A stretch of DNA of 30,887 nucleotides from a bacterium (GCA_030588935.1 JAUUWR010000001.1:1-30887); one strand, 5' to 3'; counted from the stretch's first letter, positions 309-29,290 are shown. Notes: generated by a model from the sequence alone, not told the origin. Program-made: numbers and translations.

Positions 309-460
309 TTTTTTATTATTTTTTTGGAATTTTTACAATTATTTTATTTAATATTATTAACTGGAATTTTATAAAATATTAAGCTTGGTTGATGAGTTTG
401 CTTGCAGTCTTTTTTGTTTGCTTGCGCTTCTCATCTCCAGAACTTTTATCTTGTGAGATT
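309..460 (-). promoter_or_regulatory. Long upstream element copy 1 (rpa)
   Basis: Sense: AAGTTCTGGAGATGAG-AAGCGCAAGCAAAC-AAAAAAGACTGCAAGCAAAC-TCATC...AAATTCCAGTTAATAATATTAA...AAATTCCAAAAAAATAA-ATG. Confidence 0.75.
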
Positions 461-579
461 ATTAGTATAATATTTGTATTATTAGTTATTATATTGTTAA
501 ATTATGAAAAATGTTTTTTAAAGATTTATGTGGTTGAAGTATAGAAAAGGTTTTAAAGGCATATTTTCTAGACTAAAAA

Positions 580-1020
580 ATGCAAAATACAAGATTTTTT
601 GATGTAGAAGGTTTGAATGAATATCTTAGAAATAATTTAAGGGGAAATGTGTTAAATATAAAGCATTATGAGAATAGAGAGAGGTTTTATGCAACGAGAT
701 TTCAAGAGAGGTCTTTTGAAATAATTCCTGAAGAATTATTAGCAAATGATTCAATTACTCAAGGAAACTATTTTGAGAAGGGAGTAAGATATCCTTATGA
801 AGAATTAAGGTTTAGAGTTCATAAATCTTTTTTACTTGCTGGAAATCATTCTATTCCAAAAGGAAAATATAGGGTTAGAGTGACTTCTAGGGGAGTAGAT
901 AAGCCAGTTGTCAAAACTTTTGTTAGAGGTTTTTGCAGATGGAAAAAAAGAAATTTACCTATGAGTTTACCTTTAGATAAGATTCTTAATGGGGAGCTTG
1001 AGGATTATATTATTGAATAA
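580..1020 (+). CDS. hypothetical protein (146 aa ORFan)
   Basis: ORF with TATA-like TTTTAAAG at 551-558 (about -29); stop lies 2 nt from the mcm stop. No family recognised. Confidence 0.7.
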   Translation: MQNTRFFDVEGLNEYLRNNLRGNVLNIKHYENRERFYATRFQERSFEIIPEELLANDSITQGNYFEKGVRYPYEELRFRVHKSFLLAGNHSIPKGKYRVRVTSRGVDKPVVKTFVRGFCRWKKRNLPMSLPLDKILNGELEDYIIE

Positions 1021-1022
1021 TT

Positions 1023-3029
1023 TCAAATCAACTGCACAAACCCAGATTTGGGCTGGAAAACGTCTCCGATTTTCTTGAGTTTTTCAAAAGATTCTTCAAA
1101 TTCAGTATCTGAGATATTGTCGCCTAATTCTTTTCTTAAAATATTCAGGGGAACCATTTTTCCGTGTTTTTCTTCAAGTTTCCTGATAGTTTCTTTTACG
1201 AGAATGATTTTATTTCTTTGACTTGAACTTACTTTTGATGTGAACCTGTCAATATCAAAGGTTTTTGTTTCAGAGTCATAGCCGACCTGCATTAAATAAT
1301 AATTTGTTAGTCTGATTGCCACTTGTGCATCTTGTTTTTCAACTTTGTTGCTTAGTCTTGTTTTTGCATGTGCTTCTGCAAGTCTTATCAAGCCCTGCAG
1401 TTGTCTTGCAGAAATTGGTATTGAGCTTGAATCTCCTGATGCCTGCATGTTTCTTAATTTTACATAAAAACTCTTGATTTCTTCTACTGCTTCGTCTGTT
1501 AATTTTGGGTTAACTTTTTGCTTGGCATAAGCAACATATTTTCTGAATAATTCCCTATCTATTTCTGATTCTCTGCCTTTCATTTGATGGAGGTTTAAAA
1601 CATGAGTTGCAATTGCATCATCTTGTTCTTTATTTGGAAGGTCTCTGAGTATGAAGATGAGATCGAATCTGTTAATTAATGCAGGGGGCAGATCAATTTG
1701 CTGTGTGATTGATTGAAGAGGTTCAAATCTTCCGTATTTAGGATTTCCTGCTGCTAAAACAGAAGTTTGGGCACTTAACGTGGCCTGAACATTAGCTTTA
1801 CTTATTGTAACTGTTTGTTGTTCAAGCGCCTCGTGCATTGCACTTCTATCTTCAGCATTCATTTTTTCAATTTCATCAATACATACAACTCCTTTATTGG
1901 CAAGAACCATTGCTCCTGCTTCCAAGCTCCATCCTTTTAAGAATTCGTCTCTTACAACAGTTGCTGTGATTCCTCTTCCACTTGCTCCCATTCCAACAAC
2001 ATATCTTCCTTTTGGGGCAATATTTGAGATAAATTTTAATGTTACTGATTTGGCTACGCCAGGATCTCCCATTAAAAATAAATGAATATCTCCTCTTGAA
2101 GTGGTTCCATCTGAGCTTACTTTCCTTACCCCCCCAAACATTTGCAAGACTAAAGACTCTTTAATTTCATCATAACCCCAAATACTTGGAGCTATACTTC
2201 CTTTTAATTTATTAAATAATTTAGGGTCTGCTGCTAATTCCTGAATTTGCCTCTCATCTTCTTCATCAATTTCAAAATCTTCATAAGTTGATTCTAAAGG
2301 TATTAGATTGTTTGCTTCAACAGCTAAATCAAATCTTGTTGAAATTGAACCTGATTGCAATGGGACTGGAACTTCTTTTAAAATCCCTAATACTCTTACT
2401 TTGCTTCCAGGGGTTGTTTTTTCTTCCATTCCTGGCTCTACTAAATCTTCTTTTAAAAATACAGGCATTCTTCTTGGTTGTTCTCCTCCAGATAATGATT
2501 CAGGAGATTCTTCAATAACTAATCTTTGAGCATCAACCATTGATTTGCTGATTAATCTGAATTGTCCTTTTCTTCCACAAGAACATCTGCTTGGTTCTCT
2601 GAACTTTTTTTCAATTTGCAATACAGAGATGACTGTCCCGCAAGAAGGGCATTCGAATTTAGCATTAACTACCTGCGGACGGACTTCTGAAGTTTGTCTT
2701 ACTAGTCCTTCAAAAAATATCAGTTGATTAAGATGCTGAGCTCTAATTGTTCTTATTTTTACTTTTTGTGTTTCAGGAAGATTGTTTAATCTGATTCTTG
2801 CATCTTTTATAAGTCCTGTTTCTTCTAAAGCTGTTTCAAGAATTTGCAAGAGTTCTTCTGGATTGCTTATTAATGCTTCTGATAAAATAGGCGAGTGAGA
2901 AGCAAGGTCATTAAAGTGTATAAAAACAACTTTTCTGCCTTTTCTAATGCTTTCACCTATGTCTTTTTTATAAGTTGCAAAAAAAGATTTTGCTTCAATT
3001 ATTAGTTCTTCAGTTCCTTTTGGTGGCAT
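1023..3029 (-). CDS. mcm: Minichromosome maintenance replicative helicase
   Basis: Zn finger CPSC..CSC, Walker A GDPGVAKS, Walker B VCIDEIEKM, SRF-like INRFD, ISARQL sensor; 668 aa, no intein visible. Confidence 0.98.
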   Translation of the reverse strand: MPPKGTEELIIEAKSFFATYKKDIGESIRKGRKVVFIHFNDLASHSPILSEALISNPEELLQILETALEETGLIKDARIRLNNLPETQKVKIRTIRAQHLNQLIFFEGLVRQTSEVRPQVVNAKFECPSCGTVISVLQIEKKFREPSRCSCGRKGQFRLISKSMVDAQRLVIEESPESLSGGEQPRRMPVFLKEDLVEPGMEEKTTPGSKVRVLGILKEVPVPLQSGSISTRFDLAVEANNLIPLESTYEDFEIDEEDERQIQELAADPKLFNKLKGSIAPSIWGYDEIKESLVLQMFGGVRKVSSDGTTSRGDIHLFLMGDPGVAKSVTLKFISNIAPKGRYVVGMGASGRGITATVVRDEFLKGWSLEAGAMVLANKGVVCIDEIEKMNAEDRSAMHEALEQQTVTISKANVQATLSAQTSVLAAGNPKYGRFEPLQSITQQIDLPPALINRFDLIFILRDLPNKEQDDAIATHVLNLHQMKGRESEIDRELFRKYVAYAKQKVNPKLTDEAVEEIKSFYVKLRNMQASGDSSSIPISARQLQGLIRLAEAHAKTRLSNKVEKQDAQVAIRLTNYYLMQVGYDSETKTFDIDRFTSKVSSSQRNKIILVKETIRKLEEKHGKMVPLNILRKELGDNISDTEFEESFEKLKKIGDVFQPKSGFVQLI

Positions 3030-3221
3030 TTTTTATTATGTTTTGAATTTCATGAAAAATTTACTTAATATTATTAACTGGAATCTTAATGGATAGTTAA
3101 GTTATTCAGAGGAGATGCTTAAGCTCTTTCTTGTTTACTTAATCTTCTTATTCGTCCCATAAATATTTTATATATTATTAGTTTTTTATATAAAATATAT
3201 GAGCGAACAAAGTGAGCGAGC
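3030..3221 (-). promoter_or_regulatory. Long upstream element copy 2 (mcm) with tandem-GA hairpin
   Basis: Plus-strand block TTTACTTAATATTATTAACTGGAATCTTAATG 3060-3091; GCTTAAGC 3117-3124; GAGCGAACAAAGTGAGCGAGC 3201-3221. Confidence 0.75.
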
Positions 3222-3387
3222 TATAAGATAATTATTTTCCTCCTTTTGTGCATAAGAGAGAAGAGTTTGATTTATAAATAATTATTTGTTGTGTAGGATA
3301 TAATTAGAAATATGTTATCTAAACAAATGAAGTGATGGGGGGTTATTTTATCTAAATATTTAAATATATTAATAATCTATAATAAAT

Positions 3388-3648
3388 ATGAGAAGTTATA
3401 AGGTTGGTTTGAAGGATTTGAAGTTTTTAGTAGAGGGTTTTGTAGATGGAATGTATTTTACGAGAACGGGGGCTGTTAGATGGTGTAAGGAAAACAAGGA
3501 AATAATAACTCCTGAATTTATGAAGAGAGTTCGTGCTAGTCCTGATGGATTTTTTTATTATGAAAGTCATCTAAGAGAGGATTTAGATGAATTTGAGAAA
3601 ATGTTAAATGAACTTTCTGAAACAGAAGAAATTCTTTCTACTCTTTAA
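3388..3648 (+). CDS. hypothetical protein (86 aa ORFan)
   Basis: ORF with TTTAAATA at 3359-3366 (-29); stop abuts the tbp stop. Confidence 0.65.
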   Translation: MRSYKVGLKDLKFLVEGFVDGMYFTRTGAVRWCKENKEIITPEFMKRVRASPDGFFYYESHLREDLDEFEKMLNELSETEEILSTL

Positions 3649-4209
3649 TTATTTATTCCGATTAGCCTCTCTTATTCTTTTGATTAATTGTGTCATTGAG
3701 TCTTCTAATTGCTGGTTGTTTTTTGTTCCTGTGCAGACTAATTTTCCATTACTGAATAATAAGAAAGTTGCGTTGGGTTCAACAAGCTTATATACTAAGC
3801 CTGGGAATTGTTCTGGTTCATATTCTGTGTTTTCTAATTCTAAAGCCAGGAAATTTAGATTTAATGGAATGTTAATACTTCCAGAAGCAACAATGTTTTG
3901 GACAGTTATTTTTGGTTTTCCAGTTATTTTGATATTTATTTTCCTTAGTGTTTTTATAACCTGTTCAATAACTTGTTTAACTTGCAGAATTGATTTTGTT
4001 CCTGTGCAAACTAAATTTCCTGATGCAAATACAAGAACTGCGGATTTTGGTTTTTTGATTCTTAATATGAGCCCTGGAAATGTTTCAGGATTATATGTCG
4101 TGGTTTGAATTGTTTTTGCTAATTTTGTTAAGGGAACATCTTTTCCTAACGAAGTTGTTGCAACTATGTTTTGAATTTTTAAAGAAGTTTTTGATTTTGT
4201 TTTAGGCAT
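3649..4209 (-). CDS. tbp: TATA-box-binding protein
   Basis: Two TBP repeats: IQNIVATT...YNPETFPGLILR...VLVFASGNLVCTG and VQNIVASG...YEPEQFPGLVYK...FLLFSNGKLVCTG. Confidence 0.98.
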   Translation of the reverse strand: MPKTKSKTSLKIQNIVATTSLGKDVPLTKLAKTIQTTTYNPETFPGLILRIKKPKSAVLVFASGNLVCTGTKSILQVKQVIEQVIKTLRKINIKITGKPKITVQNIVASGSINIPLNLNFLALELENTEYEPEQFPGLVYKLVEPNATFLLFSNGKLVCTGTKNNQQLEDSMTQLIKRIREANRNK

Positions 4210-4383
4210 TTTGTTTATTTTATTTTTTATTGGAATCTAATATTATTTTATTCTGGAATCTCTTATAAATTATTAATCTATTCAGATGACTTGCTTAAGC
4301 TTTTCTTCCGAGTAAATTATATTTTATTTATTATTAGTTTATAATATCGTAAAACAGGTGAGCGAACAAAGTAAGCGAGCCTG
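4210..4383 (-). promoter_or_regulatory. Long upstream element copy 3 (tbp) with tandem-GA hairpin
   Basis: TGGAATCT at 4231 and 4254; GCTTAAGC 4293-4300; GAGCGAACAAAGTAAGCGAGC 4360-4380. Confidence 0.75.
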
Positions 4384-4548
4384 ATATATTTGATATTTTT
4401 ATTGAGTTATTACTTTTGAATAATTAGTAAAGTTTATAAAGGGAGAGAGAGGTTTGGGTTTTTAAAGTTTTGGGTGGTGTTGTGAGAAAAATCAAAATAT
4501 ATCTTATAGATTGATAATATTTTTAAAGATAAATTTTATTTTTATAAT

Positions 4549-4845
4549 ATGAAATCTAAATCTAAAGTTAAACATGAGTTATCAAAGAATATAGTTAATT
4601 ATTTGCATGATACTTTTGGAGAGAATTATAGACAGATTGGAGAAAAGATAGACTTATCAGAGAGTTTTATGTCCCTGGTTAGACATGGAGAAAGAAATTT
4701 GACTCTTGATCATTTATTAAGGATTGAAAGTGTTTATGAAACTCCTCTCCCAACTATTTTAATACAAGCTATTAAAGATAAAAATATTCCAGAAGAATTA
4801 AGAGAGGGATATGAACTTCTTCGTGAGATAGTGATGGAAATTTAA
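4549..4845 (+). CDS. XRE-family helix-turn-helix protein
   Basis: NYRQIGEKIDLSESFMSLVRHGERNLTLDHLLRI matches the XRE/Cro HTH pattern; TTTTAAAG at 4521-4528; overlaps the lig stop by 4 nt. Confidence 0.75.
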   Translation: MKSKSKVKHELSKNIVNYLHDTFGENYRQIGEKIDLSESFMSLVRHGERNLTLDHLLRIESVYETPLPTILIQAIKDKNIPEELREGYELLREIVMEI

Positions 4846-6548
4846 TACCTCACCTTCAACTCATGCCTTTCATAATCATTAGTGATTTCTTTTAAAGTTG
4901 CAACATCTTCTGCTCTTCTGTCAGGCCTAAGCTGGATTATTCTTGGAAATCTTAATGCAAATCCGGACTTATAGGTTGGTGAGCGCTGGATGTTTTGATA
5001 TCTTATTGTCACTACAATTTTGGGTTTGATGTCTACTTTTCTTCCATGCTCTTTTGTGATTAAGGGGTTAAGTTTTTTTGTTAGTTCTGTAAATGAAAGT
5101 CCGAGTTCTTTTTTTTCTTTTAATCCTGATGATTTTCCTATTTCAAGGAATTTGTTTGTTTCGTCATCTTTGCATGATAGGGTGAAAGACGCTAAAGCTC
5201 CAGCTCTTTTTCCTTTTCCATATTCTCCTCCTGTGATAACTAAATCAAGCTCGTTTTCAGCTGGCTTGAGTTTTAGCATGTGCCCGACTCTTGCTCCTGG
5301 CTGATATGCTGATTTTAAGTTTTTAATCATAACTCCTTCTTGATTGTCTTTTAATGCCTGGTTGTAGAATTCTTTTACTTTTTTTTCATCACTTGTTATT
5401 AATTGATGCGCTGTTTTAAGGTGGAATCTCTTGTTTTTGATTATTTTTCTTAAGAGTTTTGTTCTTTTTTCAAAGGGCTGGTCAACTAATGGTTTTCCAT
5501 TATAATACAATAAATCAAATGCATTGATTTCTATTGGGAGTTTTTTGACTAATTCTGGAATATTATGTTTTCTTTTGATTCTCTGGGAAACTGCTTGAAA
5601 AGGAGTGTATTTTTTTGTTTTTCTGTCAAAACCAACTGCTTCTGAGTCAATTATAAATGATTTGGCTTTTATGTGCTGTTTGACATACTGGATAACTTCT
5701 GGGAATTGGGTGGAAACATTGTCTAATCTTCTTGTGAATATTTTTATATTTCCCTGCTCATCTTTGTTTATCATCATTCTAAAGCCATCATATTTATATT
5801 CGAAACAAGCAGGCTTGCCAACTCTTTTAAATCCATCTTCAATATCTTCTGCTTTTAATGCCAGCATTGCTTTTAATGGATGCCCAGGAGTTAAGGTGAT
5901 TGATTTTAATGCTCTTGCTCCTTTGCATGCTTTTTCAAATACTAATGCAAAATCAGTTGCTTTATCATATGCATTTTGGATGAGGCTATGATTTTCTTTT
6001 GTTTTGTCAAGACAAGCCCATACAATAGCATCTCTTATTGTTCCAGAAGCTACTCCTATTCTTAATTTGTTTAATAAAGTTCTGATAATGTATTTTGCTT
6101 CTATTTCTGAGGCAGATGTTAAGAGTTCTGAGATAAGGGAGAGTTTTTTGTCTACTGTTCCTTTGCCTTCTAGTTCTGGAAGTTTTTGCAGGTTTGCGAG
6201 AACTTTTTCAGTTGTTAATTTATGAGAGAATAATGTGTTTTGTTTTTTCTTTAAAATTATTTGTTCTGCTACTTTTCCTAAATCTCCTATTTTTTTGTAT
6301 TTTTGGATAATATCTTTTTTGTCAATTCCAGAGGATTTTGACAGTGCTTTAATGCATAATTGCTCTGAAATTCCAAATTCTCTTTCATCATAATCTGGAA
6401 ATACTTTTCCTTGGATGAGGTAAATTATTTGCTTGTCTTTTTCTTTTTTTAATGTTTTTAGGAAGTCTGCTAAGATTTCTGTTTTTTTTAATCTAGATGG
6501 GTTTTGTTCTAGGTCTTCGTATATTGTGCATAATTGTGAGTATTGCAT
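4842..6548 (-). CDS. lig: ATP-dependent DNA ligase
   Basis: Motif I EYKYDGFR, IIDSEAV, NAFDLLY, EGVMIK, WxK-like MLKLK, ALRFPRI; N-terminal DNA-binding domain. Confidence 0.98.
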   Translation of the reverse strand: MQYSQLCTIYEDLEQNPSRLKKTEILADFLKTLKKEKDKQIIYLIQGKVFPDYDEREFGISEQLCIKALSKSSGIDKKDIIQKYKKIGDLGKVAEQIILKKKQNTLFSHKLTTEKVLANLQKLPELEGKGTVDKKLSLISELLTSASEIEAKYIIRTLLNKLRIGVASGTIRDAIVWACLDKTKENHSLIQNAYDKATDFALVFEKACKGARALKSITLTPGHPLKAMLALKAEDIEDGFKRVGKPACFEYKYDGFRMMINKDEQGNIKIFTRRLDNVSTQFPEVIQYVKQHIKAKSFIIDSEAVGFDRKTKKYTPFQAVSQRIKRKHNIPELVKKLPIEINAFDLLYYNGKPLVDQPFEKRTKLLRKIIKNKRFHLKTAHQLITSDEKKVKEFYNQALKDNQEGVMIKNLKSAYQPGARVGHMLKLKPAENELDLVITGGEYGKGKRAGALASFTLSCKDDETNKFLEIGKSSGLKEKKELGLSFTELTKKLNPLITKEHGRKVDIKPKIVVTIRYQNIQRSPTYKSGFALRFPRIIQLRPDRRAEDVATLKEITNDYERHELKVRY

Positions 6549-6725
6549 TTTTGTTATATTATTTTTCTGGAATCTTTACTTAATATTATTAACTGGAATC
6601 TTAGATTAGATAATGAGATGAGGTTTATTTAGCGCTTATAGGTTCATCTTCAACCTTAATCGTCTTTTCTTTAAACTTACTCAAACTCATCTTTCGAACG
6701 TTTATTCTTGTAAGATTAGTGATAT
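6549..6725 (-). promoter_or_regulatory. Long upstream element copy 4 (lig)
   Basis: TGGAATCTT at 6568 and 6594; GAGATGAG 6615-6622; CTCATCTTTCGAAC 6686-6699; CTTGTAAGATTAG upstream. Confidence 0.75.
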
Positions 6726-6788
6726 TTATTAGTTGGTTCCTTCTTTTATTTAAGAAATCTTTTAGGTTTATTAAGGTTTTTAATTGGA

Positions 6789-7295: not shown

Positions 7296-7340
7296 TTTTT
7301 TAGTATATTTTAATTCTTTTTAAGAATTATTGTGGTAGAG

Positions 7341-7913: not shown

Positions 7914-7937
7914 GTTTTGATTAGAAAGAGTTTGTTT

Positions 7938-8825: not shown

Positions 8826-8851
8826 TTTATAACCCCTTTCCCCAGAAAAAA

Positions 8852-8926: not shown

Positions 8927-9016
8927 ATAGAATTGATTATATATTTTGATTTATAAGTGTTTTTGTTTTGATTTATTTTTAGTAACATTTAAATATCTCT
9001 TATGCTTATTTTCTTT

Positions 9017-9231: not shown

Positions 9232-9234
9232 TTC

Positions 9235-10681: not shown

Positions 10682-10682
10682 G

Positions 10683-10733
10683 TTTAAAAACCCAAAATTC
10701 ATAATAAAACTGCTTTAAGGGGAAAAGAGTTCT
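10683..10733 (+). promoter_or_regulatory. ORFan-associated promoter/leader element copy A
   Basis: TTTAAAAACCCAAAATTCATAATAAAACTGCTTTAAGGGGAAAAGAGTTCT, 11 nt before ATG 10745. Confidence 0.65.
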
Positions 10734-10744
10734 GATAAGATAAG

Positions 10745-14357: not shown

Positions 14358-14405
14358 AAACCTTAAAATTATATAAAATTAAACCTAAAAGGGAAGAAGA
14401 GTTCT
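14353..14405 (+). promoter_or_regulatory. ORFan-associated promoter/leader element copy B
   Basis: TTTAAAAACCTTAAAATTATATAAAATTAAACCTAAAAGGGAAGAAGAGTTCT, 14 nt before ATG 14420. Confidence 0.7.
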
Positions 14406-15118
14406 TGATAATATTGAAAATGGATTATAAAAAAATTGCAAAGTATGCAGGAAAAACTGCTGCGACAATAGTTTGTCCGCCTTTGGGGTTTGCTTTGTGG
14501 CCGAAGAAAGCAGAAAAGAGATTAGGAGCCGCAGCTGTAGGACTTGTAGTTTCTGGAATGTTTAATGTTGGAATATTATCATGGCAAAAAAAACAAGTTT
14601 ATGATAATATAAGTGTGATTGGAAAAACGCCTGTTTCTGTTGTTAATTGGGGGGAAATTTTTAGTTCTCCTATAGCATTTTATTTTGATGCTCCTAATAA
14701 AACAAGATTAAAAAAAGTTAAAAAATCTTATTTTGTACAAGGGGATGATGTAGTAACTTTTAATAATGGAAAATATAATTTAAATTTCAGTTCTGAGAGG
14801 AAGTTTGGGTCTTTTGCAGGAAAATCTGTTGCACAAGCTCAAGAACAAGTAAAGATGCATGAAAAACAATTTCAAGAAAAGATAACAAAATATGAAAAAA
14901 TACTTGAAGCTTATTTAAAACAAGGAAGTTTGCTTGATGCAAGGAGAGAAAGAGAAAATTTAGATAAATTAAAACTTCTTAAACAAGAGAAATTAGGAAA
15001 ATTAGAAGCTAATTTAGAAGCAGTTACTAAAGAATATATTGAAACAAAAACAGTCTTTCAAGAAGCTGTTGATAAGATGAATTCTGAGTTAGAGTGTCTT
15101 GCGCAAGGGAAAAATTAA
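14405..15118 (+). CDS. hypothetical membrane-anchored coiled-coil protein (probable start ATG 14420)
   Basis: Two N-terminal hydrophobic stretches and a K/E-rich heptad C-terminus; preceded by the GGGAAGAAGAGTTCT element. Confidence 0.7.
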   Translation: MIILKMDYKKIAKYAGKTAATIVCPPLGFALWPKKAEKRLGAAAVGLVVSGMFNVGILSWQKKQVYDNISVIGKTPVSVVNWGEIFSSPIAFYFDAPNKTRLKKVKKSYFVQGDDVVTFNNGKYNLNFSSERKFGSFAGKSVAQAQEQVKMHEKQFQEKITKYEKILEAYLKQGSLLDARRERENLDKLKLLKQEKLGKLEANLEAVTKEYIETKTVFQEAVDKMNSELECLAQGKN

Positions 15119-15168: not shown

Positions 15169-15308
15169 GAAAAATTTGGAAGCTTTGCTAACCAAATTTT
15201 TCTTTTAAAATCTATAACGCTAAAAATTATTAAGTTTTGAAGATGAGATGATTAAGCGATAAATAGAAACACTTAAATTATCGGATTAATATTATAGATA
15301 AAAATAAA
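15169..15308 (+). promoter_or_regulatory. Long upstream element copy 5 (tRNA-binding gene), hairpin subtype
   Basis: 11-bp inverted repeat GAAAAATTTGG 15169-15179 / CCAAATTTTTC 15192-15202; GAAGATGAG 15239-15247; ATTAAGCGATAAA; TTATAGATAAA near the ATG. Confidence 0.65.
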
Positions 15309-16866: not shown

Positions 16867-17090
16867 TTTCTTATTTTATGTTGTTTTTTTACCTTCTATT
16901 TTATGGAAAAATTAAGAGCCTTCGGACAACTTAATTTTCCTTTTTTATCTATAAGGTTATAAATTTTTAAGTTATGTGAGTGAGTTCTTTTGTTTTCTCC
17001 TTGTCTGCTTAAGCTTCTCTTCTGAGTAAATTAATATTTTATAAGATATTGGTTTTTTATAATATAAGCGAGCGAACAAAGTGAGTGAGC
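16867..17090 (-). promoter_or_regulatory. Long upstream element copy 6 (minD) with tandem-GA hairpin and proximal stem-loop
   Basis: GCTTAAGC 17007-17014; GAGCGAACAAAGTGAGTGAGC 17070-17090; stem GGAAAAATTAAG 16905 / CTTAATTTTCC 16930-16940. Confidence 0.7.
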
Positions 17091-17117
17091 CAATTATATT
17101 TTAACTTTTTTTGACAA

Positions 17118-17573
17118 TTACTTGGATGTCAAAAAAAGCTTGGTATAATTTATAAACCTTTCGAGAATTTCAGCATATTCTTTTAATTTGTCTAAATCAA
17201 CTCTGATTTCTTCTCCTTTGTATATGATTGTTAAGCAAACTCCTTTTCTAAATTCGTTGGCCTTGGTTTTTTTGAGGATATCAATTAATTTAAACATCTC
17301 GTATAATTTGATGGCTTCTATGACTTCTTCTTGTTTTTTGAAAATTTTTTTTATAGCGTCTACTTTTATTTTTGGGGCTGTTGGGATTTTTTTAATCTTT
17401 TTTTTCTTTTTTGCTTTTCCTAATAGCCCATCAATAGAATAATCAATCATTATTTTCCATCTTTTGAGAAGATTAATCATTACATCGCAGGTTTTTGTGT
17501 ATTTCAAACTAACATAAAGCAAATGGTCTGCACTTATTTTTTCTTTAATTATTTCTTCTAAATTTTCTGACAT
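17118..17573 (-). CDS. conserved-looking helical hypothetical protein (possible HEPN-like), paralog A
   Basis: ADHLLYVSLKY motif shared with ORF 18261-18728; carries the long upstream element. Confidence 0.75.
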   Translation of the reverse strand: MSENLEEIIKEKISADHLLYVSLKYTKTCDVMINLLKRWKIMIDYSIDGLLGKAKKKKKIKKIPTAPKIKVDAIKKIFKKQEEVIEAIKLYEMFKLIDILKKTKANEFRKGVCLTIIYKGEEIRVDLDKLKEYAEILERFINYTKLFLTSK

Positions 17574-17767
17574 GTTTTATTATATTATTTTTTGGAATCT
17601 TACAATTTACTTGATATTATTAACTGGAATCTTAATGAATAATACCTTACTCAGATGAGTAGCTTAAGTTCTCTTTTACTCTCTTACGCTTCTCATATCA
17701 AGCGTTATATTTTATTTATTATGAGTTTTTTATATAAAAGAGGCGAGCGAACAAAGTGAGCGAGCCT
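17574..17767 (-). promoter_or_regulatory. Long upstream element copy 7 (ORF 17118-17573) with tandem-GA hairpin
   Basis: TGGAATCTT 17593 and 17625; block 17606-17637 is 31/32 identical to 3060-3091; GATGAG 17654; CTCAT 17692; hairpin 17741-17767. Confidence 0.8.
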
Positions 17768-17888: not shown

Positions 17889-17938
17889 TTTAAAAGACAA
17901 ATTTATTATAAATCTACCTAAAAGGGAAGGAGAGTTCT
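17889..17938 (+). promoter_or_regulatory. ORFan-associated promoter/leader element copy C
   Basis: TTTAAAAGACAAATTTATTATAAATCTACCTAAAAGGGAAGGAGAGTTCT, 12 nt before ATG 17951. Confidence 0.7.
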
Positions 17939-17950
17939 AATAAGAGAAAC

Positions 17951-18260: not shown

Positions 18261-18728
18261 TTAATTTGTTTTCACCCTCTTATTAACCTCCATCAGCAAT
18301 TCTTTAGCTAATAAGAGATATTCTTTGATTTTATGAATGTCAAGAGTTTGTGTGTGCAGGTTATCTGAAAGAATGACCACTTTGTTTTGCTTGACAAACT
18401 CCATTGCACTTTGTTTGTGTTTTTTATTTAATTCAAGGATTTCGAGGATTTTTTTGATTTGTTCGTTGGTTAAATTATAGGTTTTAGCGCATTTATCTGT
18501 GAAAGTCCTGATGTTTTCTCTGTTATTTGCGTAAAGTTGGATTCTCTTGTATAAATACTCATAATTTAAAATGGCATTTATGCAGTTTATTATTGATTTA
18601 TGGATTTCATCGAAGATTTTTAAAATAAGCCTTTGTTCGTTTACAAGAGGTAATGTAACATATGTCATGTGGTCTGCTATTTGCAGGCTTCTTACAGCTT
18701 GTTTTAAATTTTCCTGGAATTTTTCCAT
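18261..18728 (-). CDS. conserved-looking helical hypothetical protein (possible HEPN-like), paralog B
   Basis: QIADHMTYVTLPL motif shared with ORF 17118-17573; carries the long upstream element. Confidence 0.75.
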   Translation of the reverse strand: MEKFQENLKQAVRSLQIADHMTYVTLPLVNEQRLILKIFDEIHKSIINCINAILNYEYLYKRIQLYANNRENIRTFTDKCAKTYNLTNEQIKKILEILELNKKHKQSAMEFVKQNKVVILSDNLHTQTLDIHKIKEYLLLAKELLMEVNKRVKTN

Positions 18729-18890
18729 AACAAATAGAAGGAAGATTTGTTAATAAAATTATATGTATTGGAATTATTTTATTCTTTATTCTGGAATCCT
18801 TAGAAAATTTTAAGTGTTTAATATTGGTTTATTTAGCGTACTTGAGCATTTCATCTCTCGAACTTATGTTCTTGTAAGATTATTAGTTAA
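18729..18890 (-). promoter_or_regulatory. Long upstream element copy 8 (ORF 18261-18728)
   Basis: TGGAAT 18769 and 18792; TTCATCTCTCGAAC 18850-18863; CTTGTAAGATTATTAG upstream, as in copies 1 and 4. Confidence 0.7.
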
Positions 18891-19063: not shown

Positions 19064-19180
19064 TTTATTTGTCTTATTTAATTTATTTGGAATTTAATTA
19101 ATATTTTAAGCTATGTTGATGAGTAGCTTGAGTTTCTGTTGTGTGTATCTCTATTCTTTTTAAGATAATGATATTCTTTT
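19064..19180 (-). promoter_or_regulatory. Long upstream element copy 9 (sec61beta), partial
   Basis: Sense AAGCTACTCATCAACATAGCTTAAAATATT..AAATTCCA, closely similar to copy 1 (CTCATCAACCAAGCTTAATATT..AAATTCCA). Confidence 0.6.
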
Positions 19181-21970: not shown

Positions 21971-21978
21971 TGGATAGA

Positions 21979-22030
21979 TTTAAAAATAACAAAATCATAA
22001 TAAAATTGCCTAAATGGGAAAGAGAGTTCT
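21979..22030 (+). promoter_or_regulatory. ORFan-associated promoter/leader element copy D
   Basis: TTTAAAAATAACAAAATCATAATAAAATTGCCTAAATGGGAAAGAGAGTTCT, 8 nt before ATG 22039. Confidence 0.7.
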
Positions 22031-22032
22031 GA

Positions 22033-22380
22033 GTGAAAATGCAAAAAGGATTATTAAGAAAAATTGGATATGGAATATTAATAGCTTTGGCCTCAGGTGT
22101 ATTAAGTGGAAAATTAAGTTACGAAGAAGGTTATAAAAGAGGGGTAGGAAAAGAAAGAAAGGAATATGAAGAAAGAATAATGCACGCAAAGATAAAAGAT
22201 ATAAATTTAGATGGAAAAGGAGATTTAATTCTCCCACATTATGAAGATGATGTGTGGATTCCCAGGTTATTTATCAATGAAGGAGAATTTTTTTGCCCAG
22301 TGGAAACATATGTAAAAGTAAATTCAAGGAAGGAATTATATAAGTTGTATGAAGTTGGATATGAAGAAATTAAAAAATAA
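22033..22380 (+). CDS. hypothetical membrane-anchored protein with DINLDGKGD Ca-binding-like loop (probable start ATG 22039)
   Basis: N-terminal TM segment; DxNxDGxxD motif; preceded by the GGGAAAGAGAGTTCT element. Confidence 0.65.
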   Translation: MKMQKGLLRKIGYGILIALASGVLSGKLSYEEGYKRGVGKERKEYEERIMHAKIKDINLDGKGDLILPHYEDDVWIPRLFINEGEFFCPVETYVKVNSRKELYKLYEVGYEEIKK

Positions 22381-22388
22381 AAAATAAA

Positions 22389-22865: not shown

Positions 22866-22897
22866 AAACAATTATAAAACTATTTCTATTTGATTTA

Positions 22898-23030
22898 TTA
22901 TATAAAAAACACCTATAACTTTATAAGAATATAAGTTCGAGAGATGAGGAGCTTAAGCAAACAAAAAAGGCGCAAGCAAACTCATAACATAACTTAATAT
23001 ATTGTAAGATTCCAAAAAAATAAAAACAAA
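22898..23030 (+). promoter_or_regulatory. Long upstream element copy 10 (aRF1)
   Basis: TTATATAAAAAAC 22898; GTTCGAGAGATGAG 22935-22948; GCTTAAGC 22951; CTCAT 22981; AAGATTCCA 23006-23014; near-copy of copy 1. Confidence 0.8.
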
Positions 23031-24125: not shown

Positions 24126-24164
24126 GATAATAATTTTTATAAATGATAGAAATCTATAATTAAT

Positions 24165-24350
24165 ATGAAAGAAGATTATAGTGAGGTAGTTAGGAAATAT
24201 AAGGGTCGTCCTCTTACTTTTGAAGAGGAGAGAGAATTATGTGTTAATTCTATAAAAAGGATAGGGCCTTTTTTGAGAGAATTTGAAAGAGCTCATATAG
24301 AAAGTTTATCTGAAGCTATTAGAAAGGGAGTAACTTGTTATGCTGCTTAG
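24165..24350 (+). CDS. hypothetical protein (61 aa)
   Basis: Short ORF with TTTATAAA at 24136-24143 (-29). Confidence 0.55.
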   Translation: MKEDYSEVVRKYKGRPLTFEEERELCVNSIKRIGPFLREFERAHIESLSEAIRKGVTCYAA

Positions 24351-24394
24351 TCTACTATCAAAATATTTATAATCTGATTCTTATTAGTTAATTA

Positions 24395-24979
24395 ATGGAA
24401 AAAGAGAAATATGTGACATCTGAGACAGTGAAAGAAATGGATGAAGCAGGGGAAAGAGAAGGTTTGAAGAAATTAGAGGCAGCTTTATTTTTGTCTGCAA
24501 AGTTTTTGACATTGCAGGAATTAGTTATGTTGACTGATATTAACCCGCTTATGATTAAGGAATTGCTTAATAAGTTGATTGAGAAATATAATAAAGAGGA
24601 TTCTGCGATTGAGATTGTTGTTAAAGAAAATATGTGGAAAATGGATGTTAGGCAGGAATATGTTCATATGATTAATAAATTAGCAACAGGAAGTGCAGAG
24701 TTTAGCAAAACAGAACAAGAGACATTGGCTGTAATTGCATATAAACAGCCTGTTAAACAATCTGTTGTAATTAAGATAAGAGGGAACAAGGCTTACGAGC
24801 ATGTTAAAAAATTTATCGATGTTGGATTGGTTAGTGCCAAGAAATCTGGGAGAACAAAAGAATTAAAATTAAGTGATGATTTTTTTGAGTATTTCCACTT
24901 GCAGAAAAAAGAAGGAAAGATTATTGGTATTGAAGAGAAAGGGGAAAGAGAAGCAATAATGAATGACAATAATTCTTAA
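24395..24979 (+). CDS. scpB: SMC-Scp complex subunit ScpB
   Basis: LEAALF, FSKTEQETLAVIAYKQPV.QS.V..IRG double winged-helix signature. Confidence 0.93.
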   Translation: MEKEKYVTSETVKEMDEAGEREGLKKLEAALFLSAKFLTLQELVMLTDINPLMIKELLNKLIEKYNKEDSAIEIVVKENMWKMDVRQEYVHMINKLATGSAEFSKTEQETLAVIAYKQPVKQSVVIKIRGNKAYEHVKKFIDVGLVSAKKSGRTKELKLSDDFFEYFHLQKKEGKIIGIEEKGEREAIMNDNNS

Positions 24980-25013
24980 ATAGATAATTTTTATTCTTAA
25001 ACAGAAAAGAAGA

Positions 25014-26255
25014 ATGGAATTTATAGAATTTATTATATATGCGTCGATTTATATTGGATTAATTGCCACAAGTTTTTATGTTTTAAGTTTTATTGCTGGA
25101 AAAAAAGAGAAGCCATTGTTTTTTAAAGATAATGAATTGCCCAAAGTTTCTGTGATAATCCCTGTTTGGAATGAGGAAAAAACCATTAGAAGGACTTTGA
25201 ATTCTATTTTAGCTTCTGATTATCCTAAGGGAAAATTAGAAGTTATTGTTGTAAATGATGGGAGCACAGATAATAGTTTAGCAATTGCAAAAAAATTTGA
25301 ATGCAAAAATGTAAGAGTCTTTTCTAAGAAAAATGGGGGGAAATCTAATGCTCTTAATTTTGGAATTAAGAAGGCTAAAGGAGAAATTATATTCAGTATG
25401 GATGCAGATACTATTGTTGAACCATATAGCTTGAAAAGAATGATTAGATATTTTAAAGATGAAAAAGTCGTGATAGTTAGTCCAGCTATTTTAGTCTATA
25501 ATCCAAAAACTATTTTAGAGAGGATTCAACATATAGAATTTTTATTAGGGCTTTTTTTAAGAAAAACTTTTTCATTTTTAAATGCAATTCATATAACTCC
25601 TGGTGCTTTTTCAGCAGTTAGAAAAAGTTTTTTTGATAAATATGGGGGATATGATGAAAAGAACATAACTGAGGATTTAGAATTAACTTTAAGGGCGCAG
25701 TATCATGGTTATAAGGTTGAAAATGCTCCTAATGCTCCTGCTTATGCAGTTGCTGAAGGAAAATTTATTAGATTAGTAAAACAGAGAAGAAGATGGTATA
25801 GTGGTTTGATGAAAAATTTGTGGGATTATAGGAAAATCATAAGTCCTAAATATGGGGATATGGGATTATTTGTTATACCTATTGCAATAATTAGTATTTT
25901 TTTTGCAATTATTGTTACTCTTTATATGTTTTTTAAAGTTCTTTTTGACATAAAGAATGAATTGCTTTTTTTAAGCAGTGCAAATTTTGACTTTGGCAGT
26001 GTTTGGGAAATAAATAAATATATTGTAGAAAGGTTTTTCTTTTTATTATTTACAAATCCTGTTTTTGTATTTATATTATTTTTTATGATTATCTTTGCAG
26101 GATATTTGTTTTATGCTTCGAAGAAATTAAAAAGAAAATCCAAATGGGTTATTAATCTTCCTTTGTTTATTATGTTTTTTGCAGTTCTTTTTGGATTTTG
26201 GTGGCTTGTTTCTATTGTTTATACAATATTTAATAAAAAAGTTTCTTGGAGATAA
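25014..26255 (+). CDS. GT2 membrane glycosyltransferase (cellulose/hyaluronan synthase-like processive motif set)
   Basis: SVIIPVWNEE, VNDGSTD, GGKSNALN, MDADT (DxD), ITEDLE, QRRRW (QxxRW), C-terminal TM helices. Confidence 0.92.
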   Translation: MEFIEFIIYASIYIGLIATSFYVLSFIAGKKEKPLFFKDNELPKVSVIIPVWNEEKTIRRTLNSILASDYPKGKLEVIVVNDGSTDNSLAIAKKFECKNVRVFSKKNGGKSNALNFGIKKAKGEIIFSMDADTIVEPYSLKRMIRYFKDEKVVIVSPAILVYNPKTILERIQHIEFLLGLFLRKTFSFLNAIHITPGAFSAVRKSFFDKYGGYDEKNITEDLELTLRAQYHGYKVENAPNAPAYAVAEGKFIRLVKQRRRWYSGLMKNLWDYRKIISPKYGDMGLFVIPIAIISIFFAIIVTLYMFFKVLFDIKNELLFLSSANFDFGSVWEINKYIVERFFFLLFTNPVFVFILFFMIIFAGYLFYASKKLKRKSKWVINLPLFIMFFAVLFGFWWLVSIVYTIFNKKVSWR

Positions 26256-26297
26256 AATCATATAAATTTATATAAACTTAAGATAATCATTTCAAAA

Positions 26298-26942
26298 ATG
26301 GAAAAAAGGCAGATTCAAAGTGGAAGGAGATATATCTTGGCATTTTTGATTGGGACATTTATCTTTCTTAATGGTTTTGTTTTGACATATTCTTTTTCTT
26401 ATTTAGAATATCAAAGAGTTTCTAGGATTCAAGCGGAAATTTCCTATCAATTATTCCAAAACAAACTTAAATATTATCTTTTTGATGAAGATATTTGTTC
26501 TGCAGATTTATTAGTTGAACTTTCTGAAGATCTTGGATTTCAGGGAAGAATTATTGATGATTTGGAGAGAAAACTAGGCAAGAATGATAAAAGGGTTTTA
26601 TTTAGAAAAAAATTTTATACTTTAATGGAATTAGAACATTTTGAATTTATAAAAAGGATTAATAAAGAATGTGGGGCTGAAATCCCCACTGTTTTGTTTT
26701 TTTATTCAAATGATGATTTAGATTTAAAGAAAGGTGAAGAATTAGGAGAATTATTGGGTGTGGTTTATCGGAGAAATCCGGAAATAAAAATATATTCTTT
26801 TGATATAAATCTGGATAGCGATTTGATTAAAATGTTAAAAGAGAAATATGAAGTAGAAGAACTTTTGACTGTTGTTATTAATGAAGAAATAAAGGTTGTG
26901 CATCCAAAGAATATTAATGAAATTGAACAGTATTTGGAGTGA
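26298..26942 (+). CDS. membrane-anchored hypothetical protein with a probable C-terminal thioredoxin-like fold lacking CxxC
   Basis: N-terminal TM segment; VLFFYS...IYSFDIN...YEV..L.TVVIN pattern. Confidence 0.7.
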   Translation: MEKRQIQSGRRYILAFLIGTFIFLNGFVLTYSFSYLEYQRVSRIQAEISYQLFQNKLKYYLFDEDICSADLLVELSEDLGFQGRIIDDLERKLGKNDKRVLFRKKFYTLMELEHFEFIKRINKECGAEIPTVLFFYSNDDLDLKKGEELGELLGVVYRRNPEIKIYSFDINLDSDLIKMLKEKYEVEELLTVVINEEIKVVHPKNINEIEQYLE

Positions 26943-27001
26943 TTTTATAATATACATTTAATCACAAATTTATTTAAAAAAGGGGTTATTATAATATTAT
27001 T

Positions 27002-28024
27002 ATGGAAAAATGTGGGATGTGTGGGGTTGATGGCGAAAAAGTAAGACTTTTTGATGCTATTTGTGATGGCAGAATGGAATGTATTTGCGAAAGATGTTCT
27101 ATAATAGAAAATGTTCCAATTATAAAAAAACCAGAAGCATCTCAGTTAAAAGAAGCTGAGAAAGGGTTTGGTGTTTATAAAAGAATGAGGAAGTTATCTG
27201 GGATGAAGGATGTTAAAGAAGAAAAGACTTTTTTTATTGAAGATAAGCTGAAGGAGTTGGACAAAAAGCCAGAACTTGAGCTTCCTGAAAAAGATAAATT
27301 GAATTTGATTGAATATTATCATTGGGAAATTATGAAGAACAGAAGGAGGAAAGGATTTTCTCAGAAACAGTTGGCAGAAGTTTTGGGAGAATCTGAGGCA
27401 GCTATCCAAATGATTGAGAAGGCAAAGCTTCCTGAAAATACTGAGGTTTTAGTGAGGAAATTAGAGCAGTTTTTTCAGATTAAGTTGAGAAGGATTAGTG
27501 AGATGGAAAGAATTATGGAAAAGAAAAGACAAGAACAAAAACCTGTTCTTTTGGATGAGCAGGGAGAGAAATTAGATGTTATTCCTGAACCAGAGATTGA
27601 AGCTCTTGAATTAGAGTCAATTCCTGGATTAGAGATTGAGGAATTTGGAATAATTAGTGAAGAAGGAGGGAAAATTGATGAGATTCAGGAAGAGTCAGAA
27701 GTTGAAGAAGAAAAAGACTTGGAGGGGATGGATATGGAAAAAGGAGAGTTTGATATAAATAAAGCAGATGTTAGTGCTGTTAGGATTGGAGATTTGAAAG
27801 AATTGCATAGAAGAAAAATAGAAGCAACCAAGCAAGAAAGAATTGAGGAACAGAAAAAAATTGAAGAAAGACAGAGACTTGTTGAAGCGAGAAAAGAAGA
27901 GTTTAGATTGAAGAGAGAAAAAGAGTCAAGAAAGTTGGATGAAGTTTTTGGAGGGGCTGAGTTATTGGAAGAGTCAGAAGAGGATTTTGAAAAAAGAGGG
28001 GAGTTTGATGAGGAGTTGGTTTGA
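27002..28024 (+). CDS. MBF1-like protein (Zn ribbon + XRE HTH) with long acidic/coiled C-terminal extension
   Basis: CGMCG...CERC at the N-terminus; IMKNRRRKGFSQKQLAEVLGESEAAIQMIE.A.LP HTH; about 170 aa Glu-rich tail. Confidence 0.8.
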   Translation: MEKCGMCGVDGEKVRLFDAICDGRMECICERCSIIENVPIIKKPEASQLKEAEKGFGVYKRMRKLSGMKDVKEEKTFFIEDKLKELDKKPELELPEKDKLNLIEYYHWEIMKNRRRKGFSQKQLAEVLGESEAAIQMIEKAKLPENTEVLVRKLEQFFQIKLRRISEMERIMEKKRQEQKPVLLDEQGEKLDVIPEPEIEALELESIPGLEIEEFGIISEEGGKIDEIQEESEVEEEKDLEGMDMEKGEFDINKADVSAVRIGDLKELHRRKIEATKQERIEEQKKIEERQRLVEARKEEFRLKREKESRKLDEVFGGAELLEESEEDFEKRGEFDEELV

Positions 28025-28025
28025 G

Positions 28026-28259
28026 ATGAGTGAAAATGAATATGCAAGACGTTTAGTTAAAATAACAAGGGTTATGGTAAATAGTTCAACAGGCATATCT
28101 TTATTTAAATGTGAGGTGTCTAAAAAGGAATCAACTCATACATATGATTTTAATCCTAGTAATCCTGAACATTTTGCAAAATTTGTAAAACAGACCCTTA
28201 ATTATATGAATCCAGATACTGCTAAAAAAATTAAAAAATATTTATTAGAAAACCTTTAA
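28026..28259 (+). CDS. hypothetical protein (77 aa ORFan)
   Basis: ATG at 28026, 1 nt after the upstream stop, preferred over the track start 27939 (which overlaps the MBF1-like gene). Confidence 0.6.
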   Translation: MSENEYARRLVKITRVMVNSSTGISLFKCEVSKKESTHTYDFNPSNPEHFAKFVKQTLNYMNPDTAKKIKKYLLENL

Positions 28260-28283
28260 AAACACACTTTTTCTAACTTATTT

Positions 28284-28547
28284 ATGGAAATAAAGATTCT
28301 TAAAGATGAAAAAAATGAATTAGAAGTTCAGTTAAATAATCAGACAGTGGCTGAGCTTGTTAGGGTTTATTTAAACAAGGATGATTGTGTTGAATTAGGT
28401 GCATGGAAAAGAGAACATTATAGCAAGCCAGTTATTTTGAAGGTTATTAGTAAAGGAAAATCAGCTAAAAAGGCGCTGCATGATGCAATTACTAAAGCTC
28501 AGAAAGATTTGAAGAGATATGGTGAAGAATTTAAAAAGGCTAAATGA
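28284..28547 (+). CDS. rpoL: DNA-directed RNA polymerase subunit L (Rpo11)
   Basis: MEIKILKDEKNELEVQL...TVAELVRVYL...V..GAWKREH...P..L.V...AKKAL..AI; TTTAAAAA at -29. Confidence 0.85.
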   Translation: MEIKILKDEKNELEVQLNNQTVAELVRVYLNKDDCVELGAWKREHYSKPVILKVISKGKSAKKALHDAITKAQKDLKRYGEEFKKAK

Positions 28548-28592
28548 TATTATAGACAAGGATAATATTTGAAAAATTTGGAAGACAAGTCT

Positions 28593-28619
28593 ACAGAAAA
28601 TTCTAATAGAATTTTCTGT
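28593..28619. repeat. 13-bp-arm palindrome ACAGAAAATTCTA-A-TAGAATTTTCTGT
   Basis: Perfect inverted repeat with a 1-nt spacer, read directly from the sequence. Confidence 0.85.
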
Positions 28620-28788
28620 CTATTCAACTCTTACGAGATTGAACATAACCAAATTTTCCTACTTAATCTATAGTGCTAAAATTATCACTTTTGGAAGATG
28701 AGGAGATTAAGCTTGAGAGAAAATATAATTAAGCGATAAAGATAAAAATCCATAAACCCCCAGATAATCATTATAGATAAAGGGGATT

Positions 28789-28809
28789 TTAAGGGGCAAA
28801 GCCCCTTAA
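28789..28809. repeat. Perfect GC-cored hairpin TTAAGGGGC-AAA-GCCCCTTAA
   Basis: 9-bp perfect inverted repeat with a 3-nt loop, 17 nt upstream of ATG 28827. Confidence 0.8.
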
Positions 28810-28826
28810 GTAAATAAAATAATAAA

Positions 28827-29111
28827 ATGGCAGTAAAAAAATTTAGCGAGAGAAAAGAAGCGTGGTTTAGGATTATTGTTCTTATAGTTAGCGGGGTAAT
28901 TTTAGGAATTTGGAAAGCACTGACACAAATATTGGCTATTGTTAATTGGTTTATAACTGTTTTTTCTGGGAAAAGAAATAAGGAATTGGCAGATTTTTGC
29001 GAGTATTGGAATACTGAGATTTATAAATTTATAAGATATATAACTTTTGTTTCAAATAAAAGGCCTTTTCCATTTAGCAATATGGAAAGGATGAGTAAGT
29101 TTGAGAAATAA
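28827..29111 (+). CDS. DUF4389-like small membrane protein
   Basis: FRIIVLIV...ILAIVNWFITVFSGKRNKEL..F...Y....Y..F....RPFPF pattern. Confidence 0.8.
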   Translation: MAVKKFSERKEAWFRIIVLIVSGVILGIWKALTQILAIVNWFITVFSGKRNKELADFCEYWNTEIYKFIRYITFVSNKRPFPFSNMERMSKFEK

Positions 29112-29169
29112 GAAATTATTATTAATTCTGGAATACAATAATGCTTATAATATAATTCTATTTTATTAA

Positions 29170-29290
29170 TAATATAAAAATATTACGCTTGAAAGATGAG
29201 AAGCTTAAAGGATCATAATACTAAAGCTTCTAAGAGCAGAGCTTATTAATTTGTAAGATATAGATAAAAAATAATATAAAAAAATAAAAA
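29170..29290 (+). promoter_or_regulatory. Long upstream element copy 12 (radB)
   Basis: ACGCTTGAAAGATGAGAAGCTT 29185-29206, resembling copy 7 (ACGCTTGATATGAGAAGCGT); TTGTAAGATATAGATAAAAAATAA before the ATG. Confidence 0.6.

Follow-up and report, generated by a model that had tools for sequence, protein, structure and literature searches.

What are the related non-coding blocks that stand directly in front of twelve genes in a 30,887-nucleotide stretch of archaeal DNA (GCA_030588935.1, JAUUWR010000001.1:1-30887)? This whole stretch, here called the window, is contig C60 of genome G000, a Candidatus Pacearchaeota metagenome-assembled genome (MAG) of 959 kb in 121 contigs with 30% G+C, belonging to the DPANN archaea; its nearest named records are Candidatus Pacearchaeota MAGs from the Guaymas Basin, and among DNA runs a metagenome of marine sediment holds it best. 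An earlier note had offered three readings of the blocks: a regulon-type operator enriched before replication genes and possibly under cell-cycle control, a structured long 5' leader, or a domesticated miniature element. The last of these is the reading supported here, since the orthologous sites in related genomes are either empty or filled. The block is probably a lineage-restricted cassette, similar to a MITE (miniature inverted-repeat transposable element) or a mycobacterial interspersed repetitive unit (MIRU), that lands at start codons and would travel in the mRNA leader.

Empty and filled orthologous sites

Orthologous sites were compared with the nearest genomes G043, G018 and G044 (MCM 87-89% identical) and with the more distant G008 and G010. 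The DNA ligase site is empty in G043, where the promoter, a GAGG resembling a Shine-Dalgarno (SD) sequence and the ATG all lie within 50 nt; the promoter string, 35 nt before the ATG, is the same string as that at 6766..6779 in the window. The site is filled in G000, G018 and G044, and the same promoter and SD are left 5' of the cassette. The tbp site is filled only in G000 and is empty in G018, G043, G044, G008 and G010. At aRF1 the site is filled in G000, G043 and G044 and empty, with an ordinary promoter, in G010 and G008. The mcm site is filled in four species; the promoter box is located 50-65 nt from the ATG in cassette-free relatives as against approximately 245 nt in G000, because the cassette lies between.

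In ribosomal-protein operons the stop and start codons of neighbouring genes normally overlap. All junctions of this operon are 0-8 nt or overlapping in the outgroup G010, and G044 is nearly as compact. The operon of G000 (contig C7) has eight junctions with gaps of 100-230 nt, of which at least six are cassettes; the L32e-L19e gap is without a core. Six or seven junctions are filled in G043 and three or four in G018, in a non-nested pattern. The SD of filled junctions is stranded more than 100 nt from the start. The empty state of the L18-S5 junction reads stop-AA-ATG with the SD inside the coding end of L18, and in the filled state 108 nt separate the same L18 stop from the same ATG. Taken together, the empty and filled sites identify the blocks as insertions, gained at different genes in different species.

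Other sequences have also entered this operon. Extra small open reading frames (ORFs) of 45-124 amino acids are found between the ribosomal-protein cistrons in G044, G043 and G018, and in G000 a gene of 177 amino acids lies between S8 and L6 (C7:3151-3684). As a hot spot, the operon takes in more than cassettes.

The contigs of four DNA runs consisted of short pieces and repeat-induced chimeras and gave no decisive population-level empty site. In one source-like metagenome run the summed contig depth was about 217 near position 17740 of the window, in the GC-rich box of the copy at 17574, compared with about 7-10 on the flanking genes, which fits a multi-copy repeat in that community.

Size and placement of the family

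The 12 blocks had been presented as a set. They are complete for the window, where an nhmmer search found the same 12 copies and no further ones, but they are merely a sample of a genome-wide family of approximately 90-135 copies. The string AGATTCCA occurs 133 times in the genome against 35 expected by chance and GCTTAAGC at 67 sites against about 7.5, with 64 of the 67 intergenic; CACTTTGTTCGCTC, a 14-mer of the GC-rich box, occurs 17 times against 0 expected. Outside intergenic DNA these strings are very rare. Co-oriented positions of AGATTCCA upstream of a start number 62 versus 13, and its distance to the ATG falls into two bands, 11-34 and 44-75 nt, the second comprising copies with two units. 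Single copies used as nhmmer queries matched dozens of other copies in the genome, and with iterated profiles 36 GC-box modules and 70 cores were recovered. After merging, the nhmmer set numbers 135 clusters, and for 114 of them a co-oriented ORF begins no more than 150 nt away. The clusters cover 13.9 kb (1.45% of the genome), at a density of approximately 95-140 copies per Mb. The placement is clear from the 90 copies that could be oriented with confidence: 57 are co-oriented with tandem genes and 7 anti-oriented, 16 in divergent gaps adjoin the gene to which they point and 1 does not, and only 4 are found in convergent gaps.

The core of the element is about 100 nt and optional modules extend it to about 250 nt. 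The consensus of the common short form (alignment A1) has, in this order, an A/T-rich left part AACTAATAATAAATAAAATATT, a conserved ATGG, nTCGAAGTAGAAGCTTAAGCTnnTCATCTG, CTTAATAATTTAT, AGATTCCAG and an A-rich tail that continues up to the ATG. Three kinds of module are optional: on the left the GC-rich box with its TATA-like run, a doubling of the ATTCCA unit, and small nested hairpins before the ATG. Tandem arrays of units were not seen; there are single cassettes only, in which the ATTCCA unit is occasionally doubled. At C111:9790-10075 and C95:8281-8490 of G000 an extra 40-nt, G+C-richer insert, GGGAAGGTGACTTGTTAGGAAACCGTTAGGTTTCATACGA, was found inside a hairpin just before the ATG.

The 114 downstream genes encode ribosomal proteins (L18, S5, S8, L6, L32e, L29, L40e, S17, S12 and S15), elongation factor EF-2, aminoacyl-tRNA synthetases, RNA polymerase subunits, SecY, gyrase A and B, Rad50, and many membrane and hypothetical proteins. 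With functions so mixed there is no replication bias, and the enrichment for replication genes in the window reflects the chance of what the window contains. A regulon operator of replication and cell-cycle genes, as suggested earlier, is therefore not supported; the downstream genes are functionally mixed and the orthologous sites are not conserved. The earlier note had itself stated that a lack of core-gene enrichment, or of conservation in relatives, would count against its proposal, and this is largely what was found: core genes are not enriched, and most relatives show no conservation.

The copies in the window

All 12 blocks were read. They lie where they had been placed, are interrelated, and each shares the sense of the adjoining gene (Table 1). 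The modules RRGATGAG, AAGC/GCTTAAGC, CTCATC, AAGATTCCA(G), TTAATAATATTAA, A-rich tract and ATG are present as described. The gene identities proposed earlier are borne out by Pfam, with matches to MCM, TBP, ATP-dependent ligase, tRNA_bind, MinD/ParA, Sec61beta, aRF1, DUF4389 and Rad51/RadB; the rpa product is an RPA-like OB-fold fragment. The near-identical block reported for the mcm copy and that at 17574 was recovered as 34 shared nucleotides with one mismatch. The rpa and aRF1 copies, described as near-copies, are near-identical in the core, but the overall alignment is only 76% and the rpa copy has a 37-nt extra ATTCCA unit. Besides the genome-wide extent of the family, two features had been missed. 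The GC-rich 25-nt box GGCTCGCTCACTTTGTTCGCTCGCC heads 4 of the 12 copies (mcm, tbp, minD and 17574), in each of which it is followed by the TATA-like run, and the copies at 15169 and 28571 form a distinct subfamily, C.

Table 1. Cassette copies and related sites. Positions refer to the window unless a contig or locus is given.
Feature	Position	Strand	Remarks
Copy, RPA-like OB-fold gene (3-308)	309..460	-	B-type core, two ATTCCA units
Copy, mcm	3030..3221	-	GC-rich box ~3199-3221
Core of mcm copy	~3106-3145	-	AGATTAAG...GCTTAAGC...CTCTGA
Unit of mcm copy	~3049-3088	-	ATTCCAG + TTAATAATATTAA
Ancestral mcm promoter	3262..3290 (approximate)	-	ATTTATAAAT-type TATA, conserved 5' of mcm in all relatives
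Copy, tbp	4210..4383	-	GC-rich box ~4357-4381, core 4283-4300
Copy, DNA ligase gene	6549..6725	-	Long core, two ATTCCAG units
Ancestral ligase promoter	6766..6779 (approximate)	-	AAACCTTAATAAAC, then SD-like AAGAAGGAA; both kept 5' of insert
Copy (subfamily C), tRNA-binding-domain gene	15169..15308	+	First part is hairpin GAAAAATTTGG...CCAAATTTTTC
Copy, minD	16867..17090	-	GC-rich box ~17067-17091, core ~17007-17024, extra nested hairpin before ATG
Copy, hypothetical gene 17118-17573	17574..17767	-	GC-rich box 17742-17766, core 17652-17669, two ATTCCA units
Copy (B-type), hypothetical gene 18261-18728	18729..18890	-	Found by nhmmer
Short copy, sec61beta	19064..19180	-	Found by nhmmer; gene by Pfam
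Copy (B-type), aRF1	22898..23030	+	Core palindrome ~22941-22958
Copy (subfamily C), DUF4389 gene	28571..28826	+	Nested hairpin inserts
Degenerate copy, radB	29170..29290	+	Found by nhmmer
Small hairpins, window	15169-15205, 28571-28670, ~16900-16945		
Small hairpins, elsewhere in G000	C75:2613-2754, C101:6373-6514, C108:334-505		
GC-rich boxes in other genera	L160-L167		G083, G143, G147, G095, G240, G074, G216, G263

Some cassettes contain or adjoin small, perfect hairpins rich in A/T (GAAAAATTTGG...CCAAATTTTTC and GAAAATTTAAG...CTTAAATTTTC), and the loop of the one at 28571 holds a further insert of 67 nt. These tiny palindromic hairpins look like a separate insert family. A second, unrelated upstream motif, CTAAAAGGGAAGRAGAGTTCTGA, stands directly 5' of four window genes (10682-10744, 14358-14419, ~17905-17950 and 21971-22038). 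Its string GGGAARRAGAGTTCT occurs 13 times in the genome, 11 of these co-oriented and 1-23 nt before a start.

Distribution among relatives

Blastn with the whole cassette against 40 relatives gave weak A/T-rich matches only, none of them convincing. A pattern made from the 18-nt core found 2-11 copies in six genomes of the same genus and single matches in two more, with 0 for the reversed control. The sequence-only model R1 found at least 86 copies in G000, 39 in G043, 30 in G018, 24 in G048, 22 in G044, 17 in G021, 7 in G002 and 4 in G023, and at most 1 in approximately 40 other genomes of the genus. From G048 and G021 14 matches were fetched, and next to every one of them a co-oriented ORF follows, with its start at -13 to +72 nt. 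The consensus is species-specific, for example ATTAC in G048 where G000 has ATTCC. To judge from these matches, the family is spread within one sub-clade of a Pacearchaeota genus.

The GC-rich box CTCGCTCACTTYGTTCGCTCG, with up to 3 mismatches allowed, has 1-3 intergenic copies in each of eight genomes from other genera of the same family, so that its distribution is wider and older than that of the cassette. For several of these boxes an inverted partner rich in GAGCGA lies at a distance of 100-150 nt.

The mcm gene itself varies within the genus. Many MCM genes (in G048, G023, G005, G015, G046, G022 and others) have open frames of 1019-1677 amino acids in which the match breaks up into two or three parts, the pattern that one or two inteins would give. 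The window's own MCM, of 668 amino acids, has no intein.

Position at the start codon and a possible relay reading frame

Each copy lies, always in the sense of its gene, within the short space of a few nucleotides that separated the ATG from the gene's own promoter, SD or preceding stop codon. With the old promoter or SD on its 5' side, it would be transcribed as a 5' leader or as an intercistronic spacer. Such an insertion may be tolerated because the gene-proximal arm brings a new start context, consisting of TTTAT, AGATTCCAG and the A-rich, stop-rich tail. The core palindrome GAAGCTTAAGCTnnTCATCTG, which is strongly conserved, and the optional GC-rich box would more probably serve recombination or transposition of the element than act as operators of the host.

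A reading frame may connect the displaced gene to its former surroundings. Frame 0 reads the core as R-S-R-S-L-S, within a consensus M-A-R-S-R-S-L-S-C-S-S... It has an ATG start in 29 of 53 copies, compared with 5 and 10 in the other frames, and in 15 of 53 it runs on without a stop into the zone of -25..+15 nt around the real ATG, compared with 0 and 1. Among the operon copies of G000 there are complete frames, in contact with the stop codon on their upstream side and with the start codon on their downstream side. In the L6-L32e copy the ATG overlaps the L6 stop (ATGA), and 37 codons later the frame ends in TAA-T-ATG, the last three bases being the start of L32e. This relay frame would begin at a conserved internal ATG or at a retained ancestral start and end a few nucleotides before the real ATG, so that ribosomes could be relayed to the gene, as proposed for MIRUs. 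A conserved peptide encoded upstream was considered and rejected, as the variation is not codon-like and the lengths range from 8 to 55 codons.

Promoters, transcription and RNA structure

Leaderless promoters of G000 have a TTTAAA or TTTATA that begins exactly at -29 in 158 of 1182 called genes, with AA at -33/-32; other genes show a GGAG peak at -14 to -9. A canonical leaderless promoter, with the start predicted by a position weight matrix (PWM) within 3 nt of the ATG, was found in 10 of 114 cassette genes versus 143 of 416 controls. Predicted starts of cassette genes are relatively commoner 80-220 nt upstream, that is, before the insert. The PWM, built from the 158 canonical promoters, had no consistent match inside the cassette and scored negatively at the conserved internal ATG, and no SD-like motif was seen by eye in the aligned A-rich tails. 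Since a consistent internal promoter is lacking and promoters are found before the insert, the cassette would usually be transcribed from the old promoter or the operon promoter, as leader or spacer.

These results bear directly on the rather unlikely alternative that the element is a portable promoter like that of the Correia elements, with a non-canonical promoter of its own, a TTAATAATTTAT-type box just before AGATTCCAG, so that each target gene, including those inside operons, becomes its own unit with an A-rich leader of 0-25 nt. Essential operon-internal genes persist despite the loss of SD and coupling, and it can be argued that the cassette must therefore supply some expression signal. 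By eye a TTTAT lies 29-55 nt from the ATG, never closer than the canonical 29 nt, and precedents exist in the Correia elements (PMC10969869) and in 'putative mobile promoters' (PMC3575422). Against it, besides the PWM result, ATTCCA has no fixed distance to the ATG, the spread being broad (11-34 nt), and ancestral promoters are still recognisable 5' of many inserts. The operator idea can also be put more generally: the element would be an operator or upstream activating sequence of a host transcription factor that defines a regulon or, in a domesticated version, the GCTTAAGC palindrome of the core or the direct repeats of the GC-rich box would now be bound by such a factor. In its favour, the core of many copies is a palindrome, no other part is as well conserved, whether copies within the genome or orthologous copies from three species are compared, and the GC-rich box has two TCGCTC direct repeats. 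Against this, no function is shared by the downstream genes, their orthologues in close relatives are without the element, the consensus differs from species to species, and in the commonest subtype the palindrome has a degenerate left half; a host operator is improbable.

Least probable of all is a structured RNA, either a leader that regulates in cis (like a riboswitch, or by binding a protein) or a set of related small RNA genes. The part of the leader proposal that holds is that the element is probably transcribed as such; GATGAG...CTCATC could pair in B-type copies, and the aRF1 and mcm copies fold with z ~ -3. Single-copy folds are mostly no better than shuffles (z > -2) and differ between copies, RNAalifold gave zero consensus pairs with 22 and with 29 aligned copies, and the 5' arm of the stem is missing from the commonest subtype. 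A GGCUC/GAGCU helix looked for by eye gave no consistent pairing. The Rfam search proposed earlier, run permissively (E<=1) over the whole window, returned two tRNAs only and nothing for the element. Readings of GATGAG/CTGA as C/D box, k-turn or hammerhead were rejected, as the box consensus is unmet and Rfam is silent.

Ends, target site and mobility

Some copies begin with ACTGGAATCTTACAA; its reverse complement, TTGTAAGATTCCAGT, is what copies usually have at their right end, and this hints at an inverted-repeat ancestry. The ancestral ATG is retained at the left edge in approximately 8 of 14 filled operon junctions. At S14-S8 an A-rich string ending in ATG is found on both sides of the insert, being AATAAAATG in G018, AAAAATG in G043 and AATG in G000. 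A genome-wide k-mer permutation for target duplications gave an apparent excess of 5-6-mers, relative to a control that was biased because identical k-mers were skipped, and none at 7 nt or longer.

G000 also harbours an IS200/IS605 insertion sequence (IS) at C117:1-640 (L128:1-640), which has TnpA only (C117:78-422; 137 amino acids, HUH and Tyr motifs, Y1_Tnp E=3e-27). It is present in at least 5 copies that break the assembly, with ends also at contigs C24, C31, C92, C37, C68, C91 and C99. All right ends read ...GGATGTA-ATGA and continue into different genes (cbf5, L15 and others), and all left ends are preceded by ATGA. The IS thus sits exactly on ATGA start codons, leaving ATGA on each side, and start-codon targeting accordingly exists in G000. 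The cassette was tried as a derivative of this IS and the idea was rejected: the ends share only an A/T-rich 10-13-mer with z mostly below 2, and nhmmer with the IS matches IS copies only.

Several results weigh against a mobile cassette that relays ribosomes to the genes it displaces. RNA runs were looked for and none was listed, so that transcription through the cassette and the transcript starts are inferred. The relay frame is broken in 38 of 53 copies and looks broken by eye in most of the G043 operon copies, so that intact frames may mark only the young operon copies of G000. No two copies are more than about 85% identical, which gives no sign of a very recent burst. Terminal inverted repeats (TIRs) and target-site duplication are not fixed to the nucleotide; no copy in G000 has both TIR-like ends, and arm-to-arm similarity is not above the direct-orientation control. 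No transposase could be tied to the cassette in a search of two families, in which IS200/IS605 TnpA was found and TnpB (PF07282) was not. Y1_Tnp occurs in 20 of 49 genomes of the genus and was not found in the cassette-rich G048, G018 and G021.

A lineage-restricted mobile cassette is nevertheless the reading we prefer. It can be extended, as a tentative possibility, to a class of start-codon-homing archaeal elements that carry their own expression adaptor (a relay frame and an SD-less A-rich start, possibly with a weak promoter) and that, in one Pacearchaeota lineage, would have rewired more than 10% of gene starts and dissolved the tight translational coupling of the universally conserved ribosomal-protein operon; their mobilisation might be start-codon-recognising, like that of the resident IS200/IS605 element.

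The findings imply that blocks which recur upstream of genes in DPANN genomes do not necessarily mark a regulon, and that a 'streamlined' archaeal genome of 1 Mb tolerates a repeat family before more than 100 genes, including eight junctions of the ribosomal operon. In MAGs of this group such cassettes inflate intergenic length, break assemblies and mislead the prediction of promoters and 5' untranslated regions. If the idea of a relay frame or a leader is true, they would be natural experiments in archaeal SD-less starts after an insertion of 100-200 nt, and an archaeal counterpart of MIRUs.

Comparison with known systems

PATEs derived from IS200/IS605 and the REP/RAYT system are hairpin-bearing, strand-specific repeats without TIRs, and REPs are mostly found downstream of genes. 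A likeness to them lies in the resident TnpA-only element, which always adjoins an ATGA start codon; the cassette differs in having no significant similarity to the ends of this IS, and in that the transposase does not co-occur with it across the genus. With classical MITEs the cassette shares its short, non-coding, multicopy and intergenic nature and its presence/absence polymorphism at orthologous sites, but no parent IS with the same ends was found among the IS200/IS605 TnpA and TnpB families searched. Bulk censuses of archaeal and DPANN MITEs give densities as high as 105-146 per Mb, for Altiarchaeum and one Woesearchaeal genome (PMC11602168). They resemble the present case in describing dense, short, non-autonomous repeats of taxon-specific families in small genomes, and differ in that TIRs were required and that gene-start placement, co-orientation and operon invasion were not reported.

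Correia elements (NEMIS/CREE) of Neisseria occur upstream of genes and bear promoters, and the Chunjie MITE has been found inserted into an operon (PMC10969869). Like the cassette, Correia elements are approximately 100-150 nt, multicopy, partly palindromic and mostly immediately 5' of genes, with an occupancy that varies between species, and they are co-transcribed with the neighbouring gene or drive it (PMC10969869); for the cassette transcription is a deduction. They differ in that their 26-bp TIRs are clear, that there is a TA duplication and that sigma-70 promoters have been mapped (PMC10969869), whereas the cassette has no canonical archaeal promoter score inside and a nearly strict gene orientation.

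MIRUs, as summarised in PMC12548453, 'insert themselves at start codons' and have a coupled ORF. On that account they too are short, apparently mobile, non-coding repeats that share the orientation of the genes and lie at their start codons or at intercistronic junctions, and the end of a small ORF is coupled to the start of the displaced gene, as seen here in the operon copies of G000, whose ORFs run from the upstream stop or the old ATG until they overlap the new ATG or come within a few nt of it. The cassette differs in being archaeal and unrelated in sequence, in lacking tandem units of variable number, in the broken frame of most copies, in its optional GC-rich box and nested hairpins, and in that many copies stand at first genes behind an old promoter and not inside operons. 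On this comparison the closest described kinds would be MIRUs in placement and coupled frame, Correia-type MITEs in position, co-transcription and promoters, and the 'putative mobile promoters' (PMC3575422).

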